From positions 1 through 64,000 of IMG/VR virus record IMGVR_UViG_3300028592_000008: DNA of 64,000 bases. One strand, given 5' to 3'. Every line of letters begins with the position of its first letter. Position 1 is the first letter of the stretch. Below, one piece after another: positions 4,953 to 59,619 of the stretch. Below the pieces are notes generated by a model, which saw only the letters and a program-made list of their open reading frames with translations, had not been told where the DNA came from and made no database searches. This stretch comes from a virus. Made by a program: the position numbers and the translations under genes.

Positions 4953-5594
4953 ATGGCTCGCACCATCAATCGCACCGCTCCGGCTGTCGTCATGTCGCTG
5001 CGCTCGGTTCTTTCGCTTGTTTCCGTCAACGGCCTGCAGCCGACGACCTTTCCGCAGGTCATCGGACTGACCGGCAAGCCCGCCGCCATCGTGCAGGCAG
5101 TTTGCTGCGGGCTCGCGGACAAGAGCATGGGCATCGACGAAGCCTTGGTCGCTCTCGGCGAACAGCCCGCACCGGCACCGGCGAAGCCTGCAGCACCGAA
5201 GAAGACCGCCGCCGAGCTGTTCCGGGAGTTTCAGGCCGGCAAGATCACCGAGGCGCAGCTTACGGCCGAGCTGGATCGACTGACCGTCCGCGCCCCGGCT
5301 CCGGTCAAACCGCTGGCAGAGATCACCATGACGGGCGACATGGTCGACCGTTGCATCCGGGACGCCGATGGGAATCTGATCCGCGAGCCCGGCAGCAAGA
5401 AGAACCAGAAGCACCAGATTGCCTACACGGGGAAGCCGATCATCAGCATCCGAGGCGGGAAGCCGATCCCGGCATGGACCGTCTACGCTGTGCTGAAACA
5501 CGCTGAGGCGCTCACGAAGGCACTGACGGAGCGAGGCTACACGGAATCCGAGGCCCGGAAGGATTCGACCGGAGCCGCCGCGCTGGCCGACTGA
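4953..5594 (+). CDS. Hypothetical protein
   Basis: AGGAG RBS; 213 aa with Pro/Ala/Lys linkers. Confidence 0.7.
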   Translation: MARTINRTAPAVVMSLRSVLSLVSVNGLQPTTFPQVIGLTGKPAAIVQAVCCGLADKSMGIDEALVALGEQPAPAPAKPAAPKKTAAELFREFQAGKITEAQLTAELDRLTVRAPAPVKPLAEITMTGDMVDRCIRDADGNLIREPGSKKNQKHQIAYTGKPIISIRGGKPIPAWTVYAVLKHAEALTKALTERGYTESEARKDSTGAAALAD

Positions 5595-5684
5595 TCGGAC
5601 TGGCCTTACGCGCCCGGCATGGCACCGGGCGCAGTAGGCCGGACCGACCCGGCACCGCTGACACACAGAACGGGAGAAAACGCT

Positions 5685-5897
5685 ATGACGGACGAGACGC
5701 TGTCGAGAATGGTCAATGCCTCACGGAGATCCGCAGCCGAGGTACTGCGCGGAATGATCGAATCGGGGGAGATGTTGCCCGGCACCAGTGTGCAGCACGC
5801 GATTCGGATTCTTGTCTGCCGAGGAGTGAACCTCACAGGCACAACACCGGAAGGTTGGGACCGCATCGAGGGAGGAGGAGAGACGCACGGCAGCTAG
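5685..5897 (+). CDS. Hypothetical protein
   Basis: GGGAG RBS; followed by a terminator. Confidence 0.5.
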   Translation: MTDETLSRMVNASRRSAAEVLRGMIESGEMLPGTSVQHAIRILVCRGVNLTGTTPEGWDRIEGGGETHGS

Positions 5898-5925
5898 ACC
5901 CGGCATTGAACGCGACGCAAGACAC

Positions 5926-5963
5926 AACCGCCTGCAGTCCACACCGGACGCAGGCGGTTTTTT
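5926..5963 (+). terminator. Rho-independent terminator
   Basis: AACCGCCTGC...GCAGGCGGTT stem followed by a T-run. Confidence 0.75.
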
Positions 5964-6365
5964 CATGCGCCGACCGGAACGCGGCAGACTGGCGTCAGGA
6001 TGGCCCGGCATCAGGAGGCGACCGGATTGCCACGCTGACGGATGAAACGCCCGGCAGCACGCACGGCAAGGCGTCTGGCGATGGAAACGAGACCGAGAGG
6101 AGGAAGCGAGATCCAGGCACGGGCGAACCAGGCACGCGGAGGAGGCGGAGAACGCCCGGCATCGGCTCGACCCGGCAGCATGCACTCAGCTACCAGGCAC
6201 AGAGAAGGCAACGACCTCGGCACAGAGCGAGGCCGCATGGACGACACGCATCGATGACACATGGGGATCGGACGGGGAGGGAGGGAGGAATGCAACCATC
6301 TGAGGCACGTATTGCACCGCGCTTATGCAGCGTAACGCAGCACGCTCCCGCGACGGAACCCTTGA

Positions 6366-6393
6366 AGTGAACATAACTTACATTATCGGACGT
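6366..6393 (-). other. dif-like XerC/XerD recombination site
   Basis: Minus strand reads ACGTCCGATAA-TGTAAG-TTATGTTCACT: 11+6+11 architecture with inner ATAA/TTAT and a XerD-arm TTATGT, in an AT-rich island in non-coding DNA. Confidence 0.75.
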
Positions 6394-6770
6394 TGAGCGA
6401 GGCGAGCGCAGGAGGCATCGCGAGGGCCGGACTGCAGCGGTTCGCAGCATCGGCACGGGTATCGGCCGTCATGCGCGAGGCACAAGGGGGGAGGGAGCCC
6501 CATCAGTCTGGCGGGTCGATGTGTATTGTCCCCCGTCCAAATTTTTCCCACAAAACCCCCCTGTCAGTCCGGCAGCCATTGGTTGCTCTAACCTCTATCC
6601 TCTTAGGGACTTTCTGCTGCTGCTCGCGGCGGGGCTTGGTGCCTGCTGGGTGGGCAGGTGTGGTTTGCTGGAGTTCTTCTGGGGTCGGGAGGGGTTGAAT
6701 TGGTTGGATCGTGTGGCGATGATGTGTTCATTGTCGGGGATTCTTGTCTGTATTGTGATGGGGTGATTGG

Positions 6771-8161: not shown

Positions 8162-8554
8162 TCCGCCCGCTGTCGACCGTCAAGTCAGCGTGCAGCCCGG
8201 TGCGAGGCCGGAGGGTGTCTGAACAAGTAACGCCGCCCTCGATCCGGGGCGAACTGAGGAGAGGTGGGAGATTCTGAGCCCGCTGATCGAGAAGCTGTGC
8301 TGGCGTAAGGGGTGTTACGAGCCCGGGGTCCCATCGGTCGCTCACGAGCTTTGCGAGTCCTGCCGGCGGGAGTGCTTCGCGCAGCTCGACCGGGCGGGGA
8401 TGCGTCATGGCGAAAAGGGGACTGTGATGCGGGCGATCCGGCGGTTCATGGAAGGGCTGCCGATCCTCCCGGATTCGGGATTGACCGACCGGGGTGGGCA
8501 GGGGTAGATTTCCGCCGCTGATTTCTGGAACGGGTTTGGACGCTTTGGGGAGAC

Positions 8555-10438
8555 ATGGGAATGGTCGAGATTCCGTCGTGGCTTTTCTGGTCAGTCTTTG
8601 TGTTGGCTTGGCTGCACGTGCTTGTTTCGTTTTGGGTCCTGTGGCAGTGGCGCCGAGAGAAGTCCCGGGCCGATGCGTTCCGCCGAGTTGTTGAGAAGTA
8701 TGAGGTTATTGTCGATCCAGGGGTCCCGGTGGGGGCACCCGCGGGGCGGAGCGGGGCGAGCGAGCCGGAGTACATGACCGAGGCTTCGCGGCCTTCGGTG
8801 GCCGGGGAGGACGGGAAGAAGCTCGCGGAGGACATGGTCGACCGTCAGCGGGAGCTCGATAAGTGCCGGGCGGAACTGACCAGCAAGGAGGAACTGCTCT
8901 CGGCTGAGATCGATCGGATCAGCGCGATCCGGCGGAACCTTGTCGCCGCGATGGAGGGCACCCGGGAGCAACTGAACTGGCTGGCCGGGCATCTCCGCCT
9001 GGAGCCACTGAAGATCGACGAGCCGACAGCGGACGCGGCGAAGCGGGTCGTGGCCGCGGCGGCTGAGAAGATTCGGGCGGCGACGCTGGAATCGCTCCCA
9101 GCGCCAGGCCCGGCGATCGTCGCCGTGAAGGGGCTGGCTGAGACTGTTCTGGTCCGCCACGACGGCCGGGACGTGGCGTGCCTGAAGTGGAAGCCGCGAC
9201 TCTGGGAGCCGCTCCCGGCCGAGTTCTACCACAAGGCCTCGGGGTCGGCCGGCTGGGCGATTCACAGGACCCAGCCGCAAGTCTCTGGGGAGTGGCTGAA
9301 GGTCTTCGGGGACGGGGAATTGGCCGTTCCGCTCTCGGTGCAGGCACACAGCCCGGAACTTGCGGAGATCGCGAAACTGTCCTCCGTGGCCGACCCGCTG
9401 AAGGTCCGGGCGATCGAGATCGAGGAAGCCCTCAAGGCCGTGCGTGAGACCGCCGGGGTGTACCTCAAGGCTCACGACGTCGCGAAGATCGGGGCCGCCC
9501 GGAACCGCCTGCAGCGCCGGGTCGATGGGCAACTGAAGCAGATCCACAAGCTGCTGAAGTGCATCGAGCGGCTGAAGCAGGAGGTCATCTCCGCCGTAGC
9601 CCGGGAGGGGACGCAGGTCTCCAAGTTCAAGGCCGAGGCGGACGACTGGCGGGCGAAGTACGACGAGATGCAGGGGCGGATCGGGACCGAGCGGAACACC
9701 GCCCTCGGACAGCTAAACGCCGAGAAGGAGCGGCTTGAGAAATGCGGTAAGGAGGCGAAAGATCCAGTCAAGGAGGCCTACTTCGCCAGCATGGCTGATG
9801 CCTTCCTGCGGGCGTACCAGATCGTCAACCGCTGCATCAAGCGGCGGGCCCCGGCGGGCGGATCGGCGGACGCTGGCCGGCGGGCGGCGACGGAGGTGGC
9901 CGTGGCCTGCGTGGAGGCGGCGATCGCGGCGGATGACGCTCCGCGGGAGATTGCTGTCAGAGGCGGATTGACAGCTTTTGCGAAGCCGTGGCACCCGAAG
10001 GCCGGAGACCTGCGTCCGGAGTTCTATTTCTGGAGGGGGTCGAGGTCGGTGGACAATGCGTGGTGTACGCGAAGCATGCCGGTAAGCGAGGCGATCAACG
10101 AATGGGAGCTACAAGACCGGGAACACATGGTCCCGTGCGACCATCCGCCGGCCGCGGAAATCGTTTCCCGGGAAACGCCGGCTCCTGGGACCGAGGAAAA
10201 AGCCTCTCCGGAGAAACCGAAGATCGAGCAGGGGGAGGTGTTCCGGGTCGGAACGGGGGAGTCCCTGGGGATCCACCAGTTCGTCCGGCTGAACCCCGGG
10301 GAGTGGCGTCCGGCGCCGCACATTGCGTGGTGTCCCGGGTGGGACCGCTTCTTCCGATTCGAGGTTCCCGGCTGGGTCCGGGAGGCGACGCCGTACCGTT
10401 TCTACCGCATTGCCACCGAGGAGGATCTGCTTCCATGA
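8555..10438 (+). CDS. Membrane-anchored coiled-coil protein
   Basis: N-terminal TM helix (WLFWSVFVLAWLHVLVSFWVLW) and long coiled coils; TTGACC-18-TAGATT promoter-like sequence at 8481-8510. Confidence 0.7.
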   Translation: MGMVEIPSWLFWSVFVLAWLHVLVSFWVLWQWRREKSRADAFRRVVEKYEVIVDPGVPVGAPAGRSGASEPEYMTEASRPSVAGEDGKKLAEDMVDRQRELDKCRAELTSKEELLSAEIDRISAIRRNLVAAMEGTREQLNWLAGHLRLEPLKIDEPTADAAKRVVAAAAEKIRAATLESLPAPGPAIVAVKGLAETVLVRHDGRDVACLKWKPRLWEPLPAEFYHKASGSAGWAIHRTQPQVSGEWLKVFGDGELAVPLSVQAHSPELAEIAKLSSVADPLKVRAIEIEEALKAVRETAGVYLKAHDVAKIGAARNRLQRRVDGQLKQIHKLLKCIERLKQEVISAVAREGTQVSKFKAEADDWRAKYDEMQGRIGTERNTALGQLNAEKERLEKCGKEAKDPVKEAYFASMADAFLRAYQIVNRCIKRRAPAGGSADAGRRAATEVAVACVEAAIAADDAPREIAVRGGLTAFAKPWHPKAGDLRPEFYFWRGSRSVDNAWCTRSMPVSEAINEWELQDREHMVPCDHPPAAEIVSRETPAPGTEEKASPEKPKIEQGEVFRVGTGESLGIHQFVRLNPGEWRPAPHIAWCPGWDRFFRFEVPGWVREATPYRFYRIATEEDLLP

Positions 10439-10844: not shown

Positions 10845-10918
10845 TGGGGCGTAGCTCAATCGGTAGAGCGATCGAGGTGCATGCCTGAGAGATGCCGGTT
10901 CGAGTCCGGCCGCCCCTA
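10845..10918 (+). tRNA. tRNA-like element with aberrant anticodon arm (possible pseudo-tRNA; anticodon uncertain, perhaps GCA)
   Basis: Acceptor stem GGGGCG/CGCCCC, D-arm GCTC-AATCGGTA-GAGC and T-arm GCCGG-TTCGAGT-CCGGC are canonical; the anticodon arm does not form a clean 5-bp stem with a 7-nt loop. Confidence 0.6.
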
Positions 10919-10955
10919 CTCCCGGAATTCCCGGGCAAATTGAAAGGACACTGCA

Positions 10956-13476: not shown

Positions 13477-13695
13477 GTGAAGCAGTTTCAGATCAGCGAG
13501 GAAGACCTGCAGTCCCTCGAGCACATTCTCCCGGCCGTGCTGTGGAAGCTGACCTGCAGGCCAGATGCGGACCCGCAGGATCGCGTCCACTTCCGTCAGG
13601 TCCGGGGCATCCTGACAAACGTGCGATGGGGATACTGGCCCCCGGAGAACGTAGAGATCATTCCGCCAGGGGAGACTGACCATGCTGCTGAGTGA
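13477..13695 (+). CDS. Hypothetical protein
   Basis: 72-aa ORF filling the operon gap. Confidence 0.55.
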   Translation: MKQFQISEEDLQSLEHILPAVLWKLTCRPDADPQDRVHFRQVRGILTNVRWGYWPPENVEIIPPGETDHAAE

Positions 13696-14428
13696 GTTTC
13701 AGGCGTTGCCATTTCAGGACGCCGCACTGAATTGTGGGCAGAAGATCCAGATCATCCGCGGGGGCAATCGGTCCTCGAAGAGCCTGGTCGCTGCCGTGAA
13801 GGTGGCCGCCGCGCTGACCGGGGAGACGGTGAAGCTGTCCAACGGGGCGGGCGTGGCGTACACCCCGGCGAAGCGGGTCTACTGCGCCGGGAAGGACTTC
13901 GAGCACGTCTCGGAGAAAATGGCGGCGCCGCTGTTCGGGTCGGCCATCGGAATCGGGGAGGCCCCGGGACTGATCGCCGCCGACAAGATCGAGATGGTTT
14001 CGTGGTTCAACAAGACGCTTGGCTGGCCGGCGATGGTCCGGCTGAAGAGCGGTGCCGAGGTTGTTTTCGGACAGGGATTCAGCAATCACGGGTTCCGCTT
14101 CGCGATCATCTGGGCAGACGAGAAGGTGCTCAGCGACGGGCGGCTCCTGTCGATGGTTGCGCAGGCCGACGTCTTCATCTGGTCGACCTGGCCGGACTCG
14201 ACGAACGACGAGCTCCGGAGGCTGTGCAAGCTGGCGGCGGAGACCGGCGCGGAGTTCGTCTTCCGGATGCAGGACAACACCACGATCTCCGAAGAGAAGC
14301 GGGCGTCGATCCTGGAGACGTGGGGAGCATTGGGGTCGCAGCATTTGCAGGCCCGGAACCTCGGCGAATTCCCGGCCGATCCGCCGGCCGAAGAGAAAGC
14401 TCTTGACACGGAGAAGCCGGCCCCCTAG
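13682..14428 (+). CDS. Truncated paralog of terminase large subunit (ATPase domain only)
   Basis: Colinear with TerL 24023-25774: IRGGNRSSKS vs IRGGNRSGKS; IIWADEK vs IIWVDEK; WSTWPDSTN vs WSTWPTSTN; WGALGSQHLQARNLGEF vs WQALGAGHVQARNEGEF. Ends before the nuclease domain. Confidence 0.85.
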   Translation: MLLSEFQALPFQDAALNCGQKIQIIRGGNRSSKSLVAAVKVAAALTGETVKLSNGAGVAYTPAKRVYCAGKDFEHVSEKMAAPLFGSAIGIGEAPGLIAADKIEMVSWFNKTLGWPAMVRLKSGAEVVFGQGFSNHGFRFAIIWADEKVLSDGRLLSMVAQADVFIWSTWPDSTNDELRRLCKLAAETGAEFVFRMQDNTTISEEKRASILETWGALGSQHLQARNLGEFPADPPAEEKALDTEKPAP

Positions 14429-14431
14429 TGT
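14403..14431 (+). promoter_or_regulatory. Sigma70-type promoter
   Basis: TTGACA, 17-bp spacer, TAGTGT. Confidence 0.65.
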
Positions 14432-14437
14432 TCCGCC

Positions 14438-15000
14438 GGTGACGCCTTCCTGTCCTCAACCGGGAAGTCGAAAATTTGATTTTGCATTTCGTAGGCTTCG
14501 GCCTGCGGAAATAAGCCCGTGTGGTTAGGCGAGTTGAGGCGCCTTCCACGCGGGCTATTTTCGTGGACTGAGGCGAATGAACGAGCCAAAGCTCTCATAG
14601 CGCCCATTTGCAGTTCTGGTTAAGCACGAACCCCTGGGTGCGACCGGAGCCAAGCATATGGGCACCTTAACGCCCAAGGTATGTCGGGGACGTGAACGCC
14701 GGGAAAGGGTTATTTGCTGCCCGTGTCGATTGCAGGCGAAGGTCGCCGCGAAGCACGGGGTAAGGCGTAATTCCCCGGAGACATGATGTGGCGATGGTAG
14801 CCTAAACCTCGCTGGGCAATATCACCTTCCACCTTGTGTGGACACCGCATTAAGCGGAGCAACCGTCGTGAGGAATCAGGCTGAGTTCGCAGCGACGTTA
14901 AACAAATGCGGGGAGTAGCCCCACAAGCCATCACGCGCCGGGACCAAACCCTTAGCGCTCAAGCCGGGACCGATGGACGCTGTTCTTTTGTTGGACGAAC
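14438..15000 (+). ncRNA. Candidate large structured non-coding RNA
   Basis: No credible ORF; lower GC than the flanks; consecutive nested stems including a C(UUCG)G hairpin at 14490-14507; directly downstream of a promoter. Confidence 0.5.
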
Positions 15001-15024
15001 ACTGGACTCTTTGAGGATTATGAC

Positions 15025-15456
15025 ATGCCACGTTACGAGCTTATCAATCCGAGCGACTACTACACCTTCGAAGCCCGGGACATCCTGATCGCCGGCGCGG
15101 TGACGATGTTCCTGAGTTCCAACTTCGGGGCGGTGCAGATCCACCCGGAGGGGGACGAGCGGACGCCGATGCTGTTCGGCTGGGAGGAGTGGTTCAAGTC
15201 GAAGGGGGTCGACCTGCATGATCCGAAGTGGACCCGGGAGAACCTGCAGGCGATCGCGGAGGCTTTCGAGTCGTTCGTCATCGGGGACCGGGCGGAGTAC
15301 ATGGCTGGGCTCGAGGCGACCCTGGAGGCAGACCGGCCGGCGTTCATCGAGAAGTGGAACAACGAGAAGCGGAGCAGCGTGAACGACATCGGGAAGGCCG
15401 CGCGGAGCTACGCGACTCAGTGTCGGAAGATGCTTGAGGCTGTGGCCGCGGGCTGA
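15025..15456 (+). CDS. Hypothetical protein
   Basis: GAGGA RBS; 143 aa. Confidence 0.7.
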   Translation: MPRYELINPSDYYTFEARDILIAGAVTMFLSSNFGAVQIHPEGDERTPMLFGWEEWFKSKGVDLHDPKWTRENLQAIAEAFESFVIGDRAEYMAGLEATLEADRPAFIEKWNNEKRSSVNDIGKAARSYATQCRKMLEAVAAG

Positions 15457-15491
15457 GTCGCCCGGGATCGAACACTGGACGCTGGGAGTCG

Positions 15492-15800
15492 ATGATGGTG
15501 ACGCCGATCGGCCCGGATGACGTGGTGGCAAACCGCGGGGTGACGACGATCCCGCAGGCGGTGATCCTCGCCTTCAACCGTCTGATCGAGGGGCGGTGGG
15601 ACGGGGTGCAGGCCCGGTTCACGCGGTCGGATGCGGTCGGAGCGATCTGGGCGGCGACGGGTCTGTGCGAGCAGGAGATGTTGCACGCCCGGCATCTGGA
15701 CATTGAGCCGCTGTACCGGGACGCTGGGTGGAAGGTGACGTACGAGGCCCCGGAGATCGGGGAGACGTGGGAAGCCCATTACGTTTTCGAGGTGCGGTGA
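15492..15800 (+). CDS. Hypothetical phage protein
   Basis: GGGAG RBS; LDIEPLYRDAGWKVTY segment. Confidence 0.65.
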   Translation: MMVTPIGPDDVVANRGVTTIPQAVILAFNRLIEGRWDGVQARFTRSDAVGAIWAATGLCEQEMLHARHLDIEPLYRDAGWKVTYEAPEIGETWEAHYVFEVR

Positions 15801-16210
15801 TGGACCCGGTGTCTTTTCAGATCGCTCTGCTGTTCGTCGTCCTGGGCGTCTGCGCGGCCGCGGTGTTGCGGAAGATGCAGGAGACCAGGGAGTTCGAGTT
15901 GCGGATGTTTCAGATCGCCGAGCGGTGGGACAATCGCTGCGACTATCGATGGCAGGACCGGGTCGAGATTGACCCTGTGAAGGCCGAGGAGGCGCACGAC
16001 AAAATCGTCCGAGATCACAAGGCGTATTTCATCGAACTCGAGTGGCGCCGTCTCGGCGCGGGAGGATCCAGTGGTGGCGAGAAACCAGAAGACTCAGCCG
16101 GACCCGGTGGCGGCGATGATCGGGCCGATGCGTCGGGCGGCCCTGGCGGGGACGTATGCCGGGAAGGTGCCGACTCCGTACTTCATGTCGTGCCGCCGGG
16201 TGATTCCTGA
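15800..16210 (+). CDS. Membrane protein, hypothetical
   Basis: TGATG coupling; N-terminal TM helix. Confidence 0.55.
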   Translation: MDPVSFQIALLFVVLGVCAAAVLRKMQETREFELRMFQIAERWDNRCDYRWQDRVEIDPVKAEEAHDKIVRDHKAYFIELEWRRLGAGGSSGGEKPEDSAGPGGGDDRADASGGPGGDVCREGADSVLHVVPPGDS

Positions 16211-17817: not shown

Positions 17818-19155
17818 ATGAAAACTCTGACCTACCATTGTTCCCGGGAACCGAGGCCGCAGGACGTCGAGACTGCCTACCTCGAGGCTCGAGGCCTGGC
17901 GGGTCCGGCGAGTTTCTGGGACAGGGCTGGCGGGAAGAAGGGTCCGTTCACCCAGCGGCGCGATGGCGGCCGGCTGATGGCTGATCTTGGGCCCGGCGAC
18001 CATGTCGTCTTTCGGTCGATCGGCTCGGCGTTCGGAAGCCTGGCTGACTGGCGGGACACGGTGCGGCTGATGCTGGTCCGCGGGGCGACGGTCCATTTCA
18101 TCGGCGAGGGGCTGGTCATCTCCCGGGAATCTTCGTGGGTCGTGGGGACCGTGCTCGACGTCTACCTCCGCTTCGTGGCCGAGTTCGCGTCGGCGGACCG
18201 GCGGCGGCCGACGGAACCGTGCTCACAGCGGAAGCGGCGGTGTTCCGGAGGTGAAGTGGAGATTCCGGCCGGGAAGTTCGACGAGCTGTTGCGCCAGCAG
18301 AAGTGGGGCGACTGCCGGTTCCCGGCGACGACCGGGACACGGCACTCATACGCCATGCTGGAGGAGCCGCCGCGTTTCCCGGGAAACGATTTCCGGTACT
18401 GGCGCGAGGTGCGATACCTCCACACGCAGTACCCGTTCATCGAGCGTCCGGAGGGGAAGCGGCTGGTGCTGCGGGCCAAGCCAGGCGACGCGATGTTCGT
18501 CTGCGCCGGAAAGGCCTTCCGTTCTGTCGAAGACATGGTCTCCGCTTCCCGGACGCTTGCCGCCATTGGTGTCTCGGTGACGATCACGGACTTCGGGATC
18601 ACGACGCTGGCCGAGGAGGGGCGCGCCCTGATGAACCTGCTGGCGGTGTACGACATCTTGGCCCGGCGGCGGAAGTCGGAAGAACGCAAAGAACGCGGGC
18701 AGCGGAAGCAGATAACGATGGAGCTCCCGTTCTACCTGAAACGGCGGCCGAACGGGCGGGTCGTCATCAACGAGTTCCGGCTGTGGGGCGTCCTGCAGGT
18801 TCTCAATCGTCGGGAAATGAGGGGGATCGAGCTCGAGGACTGGATGGAAGAGCAGGAGGCCGAGCACTTCGGGGACCGGAAGCTGCCCCGCCACACGATC
18901 AACCGGCGGGCCAGGTATCGCTGGCACCCGGATCACGGCACGCTGCTTCGGCACCCGGGGCGCGGATACTGCCGGTCGCGATTCTGGCACAAGGCCCGGA
19001 TCAACGACATCCGTCGCGCGGGGCTGGAGCCGGTGAAGACCATGCTCGCCCAATACGGAATTCGTTTCCCGGGAAACGATATGCCCCGGCCACCGAAGGC
19101 CAGCCGGCGGAAGCGGGGAGTCACGAGCGGAACTGATTCCAGTCAGCCAGAGTGA
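17818..19155 (+). CDS. Protein with two tandem degenerate serine-recombinase (resolvase-like) domains
   Basis: Two copies of PF..R..G.RL...L.PGD.........AF.S..D.......L...G..V; the second is followed by EGRALMNLLAVY...ERK (helix E). The catalytic YxRVS and DRLxR motifs are absent. Confidence 0.6.
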   Translation: MKTLTYHCSREPRPQDVETAYLEARGLAGPASFWDRAGGKKGPFTQRRDGGRLMADLGPGDHVVFRSIGSAFGSLADWRDTVRLMLVRGATVHFIGEGLVISRESSWVVGTVLDVYLRFVAEFASADRRRPTEPCSQRKRRCSGGEVEIPAGKFDELLRQQKWGDCRFPATTGTRHSYAMLEEPPRFPGNDFRYWREVRYLHTQYPFIERPEGKRLVLRAKPGDAMFVCAGKAFRSVEDMVSASRTLAAIGVSVTITDFGITTLAEEGRALMNLLAVYDILARRRKSEERKERGQRKQITMELPFYLKRRPNGRVVINEFRLWGVLQVLNRREMRGIELEDWMEEQEAEHFGDRKLPRHTINRRARYRWHPDHGTLLRHPGRGYCRSRFWHKARINDIRRAGLEPVKTMLAQYGIRFPGNDMPRPPKASRRKRGVTSGTDSSQPE

Positions 19156-56426: not shown

Positions 56427-56500
56427 ACCCCGTTAGCTCAATCGGGAGAGCACCGGTCTCCAAAGCCGGCGGTTGCCAGGTTCGATTCCGGCACGGGGTG
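56427..56500 (+). tRNA. tRNA-Trp(CCA)
   Basis: Acceptor ACCCCGT/ACGGGGT, D-stem GCTC/GAGC, anticodon arm CCGGT-CTCCAAA-GCCGG, T-loop TTCGATT; bulged A in the T-stem; 3' CCA not encoded. Confidence 0.85.
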
Positions 56501-56530
56501 CTGAGTTCCTTTCTCTTTCGGAGGTTTGCG

Positions 56531-57514
56531 ATGTTGCGAAGGATGTTGTCTGGGCTCGTGATGGCCTGCGCGGGGCTGGTGTTTGGTGCGATCAGCGTGT
56601 CGACTCCGGGGCCGGGGGTCTCCGGCAATCTCAGCGCCCGGGAGTACCAGCCGGCGGACACGATTGGTCAGTACCCGGTGAATCCCAACGTCACGGTCGC
56701 CGATGACGTCGTCAGTCAGGGGGAGGTGGCCCCGGCGGCGAACACCTTTCCCGGTGAGGTACAGCTCCAGGCAAACGCGGAGGGAGCGTCGCCGGGCGTC
56801 GCCGCCTCGAGCTCGCCGCAGGTCTCGGCAATCCATGCAGTTCGCGTCATCGGCCGCAGTTCCGATCCCCGCAGCTACGGGCAGCGGGCAGAAGCCGGAG
56901 GAACCGCCGTCGCCGTGAAGGCCGACAAGCTCCACACGGCAAGCCATCTGACAGCCAGGCTGATGCCCGGGTGGACGATCGAGGTCGAGGTCGACGGAAA
57001 GTGGGTGGCTGCGACGTATGCCGGGGTCCCGGGAAAGGACCTGGCCGTGCTGACGATCCCAAACGGAAGCCTGCAGGGGGTCCCGGTGCGGGAGCCGATC
57101 TACGGCGAGCGGCTGACAGTGTACGGCCTCAAGACGAAGTCCTTCTCTCAGGGGACATACGCTGGGGACATGAACAAAGCCATCGGAAGTGGGCACGTCC
57201 CGCTCGACGTCGGACAGGCCCCGGCATTGGAAGGCGACAGCGGCGGCGGCGTCTTTGGGGATGACGGCGCTCTGGTCGGGACGATCAGTGGGAGCCCGGT
57301 GGACTCGCCGATGGTCGTCACGATGGTTCCGATCGTCAGTTCGCCCCCGGCCGCCGCGGCTGCACCGAAGCGAACGTCGAGCGTCTACGTCTCGGCGGAC
57401 CTGGCTCCGTCTTCCGGGAACTGCGTGAACGGGGTATGCTCGGCGCCACCCCAGCAGATGTACCAGCCCACCTTCGGGAAGCAGCGGCGGGGGGGCTTCG
57501 GCTTCAAGAAGTAA
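56531..57514 (+). CDS. Secreted trypsin-like serine protease
   Basis: Signal peptide; TASH, DLAVL and GDSGGGVF give a complete triad. Confidence 0.85.
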   Translation: MLRRMLSGLVMACAGLVFGAISVSTPGPGVSGNLSAREYQPADTIGQYPVNPNVTVADDVVSQGEVAPAANTFPGEVQLQANAEGASPGVAASSSPQVSAIHAVRVIGRSSDPRSYGQRAEAGGTAVAVKADKLHTASHLTARLMPGWTIEVEVDGKWVAATYAGVPGKDLAVLTIPNGSLQGVPVREPIYGERLTVYGLKTKSFSQGTYAGDMNKAIGSGHVPLDVGQAPALEGDSGGGVFGDDGALVGTISGSPVDSPMVVTMVPIVSSPPAAAAAPKRTSSVYVSADLAPSSGNCVNGVCSAPPQQMYQPTFGKQRRGGFGFKK

Positions 57515-57957
57515 TGTCCGCCACACGGCTCGATTCAAAGCAAGCCGCGGTTGCCCGGGATTGGATCCCTCGGGTGATCGCGGCTTGTTCCTCTTCCGGG
57601 GCTCAGTTCGGCGGCGCGGGGTTCAAGCTGTTTGGGCTCCCGGCGCCGCAGCGGGTGGCCGGGGCGGTGATCCTCGAGCTCATGTTCGGGGAGATCCGGC
57701 TGACGGACCAGTGGTTCCTCGATTGGGCGGCGGGGAAGCCGGTGCCGGTCGGGTCGCACACGATCGAGTTCCCGAAGCCGATGCCGATGCTGAAAACGCT
57801 GGCCGGCGGGGTGCGGCTGCAGTGGGAGGAGTCGCCGCGGATCGTCACGAACTTCGCGACCCGGCTGGTGGGAGTAGCCATCGCACACATCGACGCATAT
57901 CCTTCCCGTGCTGTTGCTGTCATCGAACGGGGTCCGGACCAAGTCTGGGAGTGGTAA
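57514..57957 (+). CDS. Hypothetical protein
   Basis: TAATG coupling. Confidence 0.55.
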   Translation: MSATRLDSKQAAVARDWIPRVIAACSSSGAQFGGAGFKLFGLPAPQRVAGAVILELMFGEIRLTDQWFLDWAAGKPVPVGSHTIEFPKPMPMLKTLAGGVRLQWEESPRIVTNFATRLVGVAIAHIDAYPSRAVAVIERGPDQVWEW

Positions 57958-59428: not shown

Positions 59429-59545
59429 GGTGGCCTTGCCATGCATGAGGGGGTGACGTAGACTTCCGCCGCTCGGTGTCGAATGCCCGGTGGGAGTACA
59501 GGTTAGTTCCTCTCGCCAAGCCCTTGTCGACCATGAGCCCCTCCA

Positions 59546-59574
59546 AAGCCGCCCGATCTGGGCGGCTTCTTTTT
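59546..59574 (+). terminator. Rho-independent terminator
   Basis: AAGCCGCCC-GATCT-GGGCGGCTT followed by CTTTTT. Confidence 0.75.
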
Positions 59575-59619
59575 TGCCCGGGCGTTCTTGACGCTCCGGG
59601 AACCGGCGATAGAGTTGCC

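Follow-up and report, generated by a model that had tools for sequence, protein, structure and literature searches.

Phage transcripts are processed by RNase III at hairpins such as those of the early and late sites of T7 and the N-leader and sib sites of lambda. T7-type sites comprise approximately 20 bp, and the 38-bp hairpin described here is much longer. In phi29, the pRNA works with the nuclease-less packaging ATPase gp16, and a pRNA model is included in Rfam. ROOL and GOLLD are large phage-associated, non-coding RNAs of approximately 600 nt (PMC5737381; bioRxiv 10.1101/2024.12.08.627333).

The locus under study is a gap between two genes of a soil phage. It was analyzed within a window of 64,000 nt (the whole stretch of DNA considered), and all positions given below are those of the window. 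Like the phage RNase III sites, the gap has a long, near-regular hairpin between genes, which exceeds two A-form turns, is broken by small internal loops and bulges, and lacks a U-tract. Unlike those sites, to which it has no sequence relation, this hairpin is predicted and is bistable, with a three-hairpin alternative. The gap shares with ROOL and GOLLD a phage-borne, non-coding character and a length of ~600 nt. It differs from them in that no model matches, only ~100–125 nt appear structured beyond chance, no homolog family was found and no tRNA genes are adjacent. As in attenuators and leader switches, two near-isoenergetic folds (-62.7 and -60.4 kcal/mol) are predicted behind a putative promoter and ahead of an operon. 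In contrast to attenuators, neither fold is an intrinsic terminator, and no leader peptide, ligand-aptamer family or antiterminator protein was identified. The likeness to phi29 pRNA and gp16 is one of adjacency only, in that a structured RNA candidate adjoins a nuclease-less terminase-type ATPase. Unlike phi29, this phage also has a full-length TerL, and the gap has no Rfam match.

The reading preferred here, tentatively and with somewhat less than even confidence, is that the gap is the leader of an mRNA or marks an operon boundary, and that its bistable hairpin may act as an RNA-level processing, stability or attenuation element of the RNase III-substrate type.

Genomic setting and coding status of the gap

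The phage is a 72,427-bp IMG/VR virus record that is rated complete by CheckV, and the window is its first 64 kb. The genome has a GC content of ~64%, and its gene content includes a terminase, a portal, a head-protein candidate, a RusA-like resolvase, a DUF5131 gene and two tRNAs. Nearly all genes near the gap are carried by the + strand, and the gap itself extends from the stop codon of one + strand gene to the ATG of the next (Table 1). The tRNAs called by ARAGORN are tRNA-Cys (10845–10919) and tRNA-Trp (56427–56501), the nearer of which is 3.5 kb away from the gap. A 445-aa protein encoded at 17818–19155 (+) has a resolvase (serine recombinase) catalytic domain at residues 209–295 and not at the N-terminus, a domain layout that is unusual for an integrase or invertase.

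Table 1. Coordinates of the gap, its flanking genes and the elements predicted within it (window positions).
Feature	Position	Strand	Basis or description
Upstream gene, 248 aa	13682–14428	+	TerL-like ATPase domain alone, without nuclease domain
Promoter-like site, TTGACA-17 nt-TAGTGT	14403–14431	+	Sequence; overlaps end of upstream gene
Non-coding gap	14429–15024	+	596 nt; putative leader of operon starting at 15025
Long imperfect hairpin, conformer A	14488–14581	+	94 nt; MFE -58.0 kcal/mol, z = -6.99
Three hairpins, conformer B	14490–14606	+	14490–14507 (7 bp, UUCG loop), 14508–14562, 14569–14606
3´ module, three small hairpins	14845–14922	+	Predicted
Downstream gene, 143 aa, phrog_10705 (function unknown)	15025–15456	+	PHROG E = 2.3e-16

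The original prediction had found no credible open reading frame (ORF) in this stretch, and two lines of evidence bear it out. The GC content at the third codon position is 0.8–0.97 in the flanking genes versus a flat 0.45–0.70 at all three positions inside the gap. Fifteen ORFs of at least 20 aa overlap the gap by mechanical count, all of which are short or out-of-frame overlaps of the neighbors. None of the seven small gap ORFs tested matched a Pfam or PHROG family at E ≤ 0.001 (best E = 0.055), and small protein genes were rejected. In a genome-wide periodicity scan, the gap is the second longest of 47 segments with weak codon-position periodicity, and its GC content (57% versus ~64% for the genome) is that of the non-coding DNA of this phage. 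The longest such segment (1,280 nt; 5451–6730 of the window) holds several inverted repeats, one of which is terminator-like (5913–5972). The gap is truly non-coding.

Flanking genes

No Pfam or PHROG match at E ≤ 0.001 was obtained for the upstream protein, and a word-indexed search of 5.8 billion proteins returned only the protein itself. Its relationship emerges within the same genome: by blastp, residues 23–230 align with residues 57–316 of the 583-residue TerL of the phage (24023–25774) at 30% identity (E = 1.8e-21). ESM Atlas features and structure place it with Terminase_6N clusters, with TM values of 0.73–0.83 by query. The upstream protein is thus a paralog of this TerL, confined to its ATPase half, and a Q-type antiterminator identity was rejected in favor of a TerL-like ATPase. 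No nuclease half for this ATPase was found anywhere in the genome, and when the remainder of the genome was searched by tblastn with TerL for a nuclease-domain exon 3´ of the ATPase, nothing but the ATPase paralog itself was matched at E < 0.3.

This truncation raises the reading that the gap is a non-functional relic, either the decayed nuclease half of a duplicated terminase or a neutral inserted palindrome (MITE/ERIC-like), which is considered unlikely. The paralogy stops at TerL residue 316 of 583, and the missing 267 aa (~800 nt) resemble the 596-nt gap in size. The gap has no relatives anywhere searched, and its GC content of 57% suits a relic, as it is that of the genome's non-coding DNA. 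When the phage's own TerL was compared with the gap by tblastn, nothing inside it was found at E < 1 (best E = 1.3), and the sole match at E < 1 falls in the 3´-terminal part of the upstream gene. No codon periodicity is left over in the gap. Moreover, 600 nt of junk are rarely kept in phage genomes, which counts against the relic.

The downstream gene has a ribosome-binding site (GAGG at 15013–15016), and an exhaustive HMMER search found 594 relatives of its product at E ≤ 1e-3, the best non-self relative at 50% identity. Its homolog in Burkholderia phage JC1, JC1_25, is located behind the replication module. Terminators are annotated in JC1 at ~900 nt (+) and ~230–270 nt (-) upstream of JC1_25, with no long gap directly ahead of the gene, which fits an operon boundary at the corresponding position. 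Alignment-based homolog loci of the downstream gene comprise 13 viral loci, 12 genome loci and phage JC1. ORF maps were drawn for 14 loci including JC1, and in all 14 another ORF ends within ~115 nt upstream of the homolog, so a long leader is not a trait of the family. By nhmmer, the gap has no similarity to the homolog loci.

One hairpin carries the folding signal

On the + strand, the 596 nt fold at -239.6 kcal/mol (z = -3.10), and none of 100 shuffled sequences folds as well. The - strand reaches z = -1.76, with 5 of 100 shuffles as good. The two parts of the gap contribute very unequally. The 101 nt at 14484–14584 reach z = -6.99, a level that none of 200 shuffles equals, versus z = -0.18 for the 440 nt at 14585–15024, where 42 of 100 shuffles fold at least as well. 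In 42 sliding windows of 150 nt across 13600–15799, only 14450–14599 (z = -8.5) and 14500–14649 (z = -5.2) stand out on the + strand, and the remaining + strand windows, coding or not, range from z = -2.65 to +2.15. The whole-gap folding signal comes from one element at the 5´ end.

The same element dominates the genome. In a GC-adjusted scan of ~3,600 windows of 110 nt per strand, the three most extreme windows (residual z of -5.7, -4.9 and -4.7) all overlap the long hairpin, which is the strongest GC-adjusted folding outlier of the 72-kb genome; the best - strand window reaches -3.0. The next best residual z (-4.2) belongs to 57541–57650 (+), in a gap 3´ of a gene ending at 57514, ~1 kb downstream of tRNA-Trp.

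These results divide the original prediction of a densely base-paired region of ~560 nt. Every helix it listed was recovered at its position, and the energy comparison that it had proposed favors the whole gap (z = -3.10) but not 14585–15024 (z = -0.18). Dense pairing stands for the 5´ end (z = -6.99) and lapses over the 440 nt that behave like shuffles. According to the folding model, structure beyond chance is confined to ~100–125 nt at the 5´ end. The helices listed in 14614–14842 are real pairings that are no more than expected for such a composition. Nor are the helices at the 5´ end arranged back to back as had been described, since the UUCG hairpin (14490–14507), TCCACG/CGTGGA and the pairing at 14572–14604 are alternatives to one long hairpin.

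Two conformations and a preferred strand

Conformer A consists of 38 pairs, 7 of which are G·U, arranged in helices of 5, 7, 11, 10 and 5 bp beneath an 8-nt apical loop. The helices are interrupted by a 2×2 loop, a C·A mismatch, a 1-nt bulge and a 2×1 loop. With 7 + 11 + 10 predicted base pairs broken only by the 1×1 mismatch and the 1-nt bulge, the hairpin is long enough for an RNase III substrate. The idealized E. coli RNase III substrate has 22 bp, or two turns (PMC3867540). The central helices of 11 and 10 bp, with a single bulge and a 7-bp flank, are longer than that substrate.

The lower stem of conformer A competes with the UUCG hairpin and the hairpin at 14569–14606, both of which belong to conformer B. 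In a constrained fold of 14484–14610, conformer B (-60.4 kcal/mol) lies 2.3 kcal/mol above conformer A (-62.7 kcal/mol). A stretch inside the upstream gene (14380–14393) is complementary to 14496–14509 at 13 of 14 positions.

The complementary strand of the hairpin folds at just -37.6 kcal/mol versus -58.0 kcal/mol on the + strand. Among the transition-type departures from Watson–Crick pairing, seven of eight favor the + strand (one-sided binomial p ~0.035, by our own arithmetic). The energy asymmetry and the G·U bias point to an RNA of the + strand, as the original prediction had argued. The claim of RNA-level structure is upheld by the 7 G·U pairs, the z of -6.99 and the favored + strand.

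A function of the inverted repeat in DNA, as a replication origin or single-strand initiation site, a packaging site or a recombinase site, is considered very unlikely. The hairpin arms do form an imperfect inverted repeat, which lies in the largest clean intergenic gap beside an AT-rich patch (14468–14490), 3´ of recombination genes and adjoining the terminase-like ATPase gene. Single-stranded DNA also tolerates G·T pairs, and the + strand still gives z = -5.1 with DNA parameters. However, pairing with these parameters is limited to the apical 43 nt and the small UUCG hairpin, and the two strands are then nearly equal (-26.9 versus -22.8 kcal/mol); the large asymmetry is seen with RNA parameters only. 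There are no iterons above chance, the GC skew has no turn at this position, and the serine-recombinase-like gene is 3 kb away.

Repeat searches found no iterons or internal repeats in the gap beyond chance-level repeats of 9–16 nt, and the palindrome does not recur in the phage genome; internal repeats, iterons and a second genome copy were rejected. The imperfect inverted repeat formed by the arms would also suit the inserted-palindrome form of the relic reading. Against it, the palindrome is single-copy in the phage, and its apex is unmatched in 401 Burkholderiales genomes and, beyond four unrelated stretches, in IMG/VR. Decayed coding DNA, the other form of that reading, is not expected to yield a hairpin more stable than any other in the genome, with a G·U bias of 7:1. 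As no homolog shows the hairpin to be conserved, it could be a recent, neutral palindrome.

Candidate signals for transcription through the gap

The promoter-like site consists of TTGACA (14403–14408) and TAGTGT (14426–14431), the TAG of which doubles as the stop codon of the upstream gene. Transcripts are predicted to start at ~14438. The original prediction had called this a consensus promoter. The TTGACA-17-TAGTGT arrangement is indeed present, but the -10 hexamer shares just three of its six positions with TATAAT, and a consensus promoter scan of 13500–16000 made no call. A looser pattern of our own construction (TTGAC-N16-18-TANNNT) occurs three times in the 72-kb genome, at 8481, 14403 and 59588, each time on the + strand. 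This number is only marginally above the chance expectation of 0.83 ± 1.0 sites (30 first-order Markov simulations). A promoter at 14403–14431 is plausible from its sequence and not proven.

The other two sites of this pattern are located as follows. The site at 8481–8510 (+; TTGACC-18-TAGATT) lies just 5´ of a 627-aa gene at 8555. The site at 59588 (TTGACG-16-TAGAGT) directly follows a textbook intrinsic terminator at 59545–59578 (+), a GC hairpin with a T-run, an arrangement (window positions 59545–59616) that demonstrates the use of canonical sigma-70-type signals by this phage. All three promoter-like sites have TAG in common at the start of the -10 hexamer.

No + strand terminator-like site was found in 14429–15024; a transcript should therefore run on into the gene at 15025. 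The long hairpin is followed by CGAGCCAAAG, without a T-run, and an intrinsic (rho-independent) terminator was ruled out here as there is no U-tract 3´ of the hairpin. Canonical hairpin-plus-T-run terminators occur elsewhere in the phage, as at 59545–59578. On the - strand, the GGGG/CCCC hairpin of the 3´ module constitutes a terminator-like site (14907–14925; a stem followed by TTTGTTT), for which no - strand promoter was seen. From the sequence, a short antisense RNA ending there is conceivable.

Comparison with known RNA families

All 4227 families of Rfam 15 were searched by cmscan, with the window taken at the gathering threshold and 14200–15200 at E ≤ 10. The former search yielded only the two tRNAs, both outside the gap. 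The latter yielded only MIR3454 (14.9 bits versus a gathering score of 142) and SAM_alpha (13.1 versus 36). The gap thus contains no family at its gathering score. The original prediction, which had not recognized the region as a tmRNA, RNase P or an intron, agrees with this search and with the negative ARAGORN result for the gap.

The SAM_alpha match falls within the 3´ module and covers model positions 10–52 of 79, that is, the P1 stem and the next single strand, with E = 5 in a 1-kb search and E = 1 in a 205-nt search. Judged against a score of at least 36 bits with the 3´ pseudoknot strand included, a SAM-II/SAM_alpha riboswitch (RF00521) was rejected at 13.1 bits.

Several other classes were considered. 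ROOL (RF03087; gathering score 99.1 bits) was rejected because no match at E ≤ 10 exists in the whole 72-kb record; the 14 control genomes likewise had no match, so this search had no positive control. GOLLD, HEARO, raiA, OLE and other large Rfam RNAs gave no covariance-model match. A group I or group II intron was rejected with no intron family at E ≤ 10 and no group-II-D1D4-1 match, and ARAGORN found no tRNA or tmRNA in the gap. A retron msr-msd RNA was rejected because RVT_1 (PF00078) is absent from the 72-kb record, and an OMEGA/TnpB guide RNA because the record lacks PF07282 and the neighbors have no TnpB/IscB-type Pfam matches. Placement in the size class of ROOL and GOLLD, which the original prediction had proposed, fails on other grounds as well: 440 nt of the gap resemble shuffles, and no terminator or 3´ end marks a discrete RNA.

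Searches for relatives and the 3´ module

A blastn search of 14380–15060 against 50,697 phage records gave no match. Neither flanking protein had a match in IMG/VR, each matched only itself among the 5.8 billion word-indexed proteins, and TerL matched nothing in IMG/VR or the phage records. The phage appears from these comparisons to be a singleton in the phage records, IMG/VR and the protein collections. Loci around homologs of the DUF5131 gene (73 viral loci, 819 kb) gave a single nhmmer match, with E = 3.3 and no synteny. In 401 Burkholderiales genomes, the order of one distant prophage host, one genome had a 32-nt match, and its E of 6.5e-4 per genome is at chance level over the 401. Among the sequencing runs listed as containing the region, none was an RNA run. 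Four further soil DNA runs contained only 100%-identical short contigs of the phage and short stretches of <90% identity from other organisms, so they offer no usable natural variation.

The exception is a 213-nt soil metagenome contig (run X3, another organism), which aligns to 14862–14905 with 7 mismatches and 2 insertions. The aligned segment lies in the 3´ module, whose hairpins are CCGC-AUUAA-GCGG (14845–14857), a 6-bp stem (14864–14869/14892–14897) and GGGG-AGUAG-CCCC (14910–14922). In the 60 letters of visible unaligned ends, just outside the aligned segment, the contig has two hairpins, one of the form GGGG-loop-CCCC and a small one with a UUUAA loop, that mirror those of the window, and apparent compensatory changes occur in a stem of 3–4 bp. 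The contig is a possible partial homolog and a weak lead, as its combined similarity is near chance level by a rough estimate.

Four motif scans were built on the similarity to this contig or on the hairpin apex. A scan of viral contigs with the motif AAACAA..GGGGAGNNGCCCC retrieved 23 stretches, none of which resembles the window. Two metagenome scans retrieved 0 and then 81 stretches (80 with DNA), again with none like the window, and the hairpin-apex pattern retrieved 4 unrelated stretches from the viral contigs of IMG/VR.

These data bear on whether the gap encodes a discrete new phage ncRNA, with its own promoter, freed by processing and acting in trans, either as the whole ~560–590 nt or as a shorter RNA around the bistable hairpin. 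This is on balance rather improbable. A dedicated promoter-like site lies directly upstream, the exceptional, strand-specific hairpin belongs to no known family, and the possible homolog of the 3´ module brings look-alike hairpins and apparent compensatory changes. The neighboring TerL-ATPase-only paralog is unusual, and a partnership of the RNA with this nuclease-less terminase-like ATPase is a speculative extension. However, most of the gap (440 of 596 nt) folds like shuffled sequence, and the gap contains no terminator or 3´ end signal. Homologs were not found in the phage, viral, metagenome and 401-genome searches, and the similarity of the one metagenome contig is close to chance.

The fuller version, a new phage RNA with its own promoter, the bistable 38-bp hairpin and a conserved three-hairpin 3´ module, which has relatives in soil metagenomes and is processed out, is highly doubtful. 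In its boldest form, by analogy, this RNA would work with the nuclease-less ATPase as phi29 pRNA works with gp16.

A bistable hairpin in a putative mRNA leader

In the preferred reading as a structured mRNA leader, transcription would run rightwards into 15025, either from the sigma-70-like promoter at 14403–14431 or by read-through from upstream. The hairpin, ~50 nt past the predicted start, would then act at the RNA level on the + strand. Judged from helix length alone, it may serve processing and stability through a double-strand-specific (RNase III-type) enzyme. Refolding into three smaller hairpins of near-equal energy would make it a possible conformational attenuator within the leader. 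The other ~440 nt would be ordinary spacer or leader with chance-level pairing. By analogy with the phage RNase III sites, the most likely mechanism would be processing or stabilization of the flanking RNAs, with a conformational attenuator as a close second. We infer transcription of the gap, its leader role and the action through RNase III or attenuation.

Certain observations count against the leader. Only 8 positions underlie the G·U bias, the promoter-like site has a weak -10 hexamer, and the number of such sites is marginal. The possible homolog of the 3´ module, if it holds, would hint at a function in a stretch that is read here as spacer.

Should a discrete RNA prove true, it would raise the question whether packaging-type motors beyond the phi29 group also have RNA partners, for which the present evidence falls short. 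If the leader-hairpin reading is right, the gap would be a regulatory feature of an ordinary kind, in a soil phage that is otherwise uncharted. Its hairpin would then be an extreme processing or stability hairpin at an operon boundary, unsurprising in kind and helpful for annotation of the genome.
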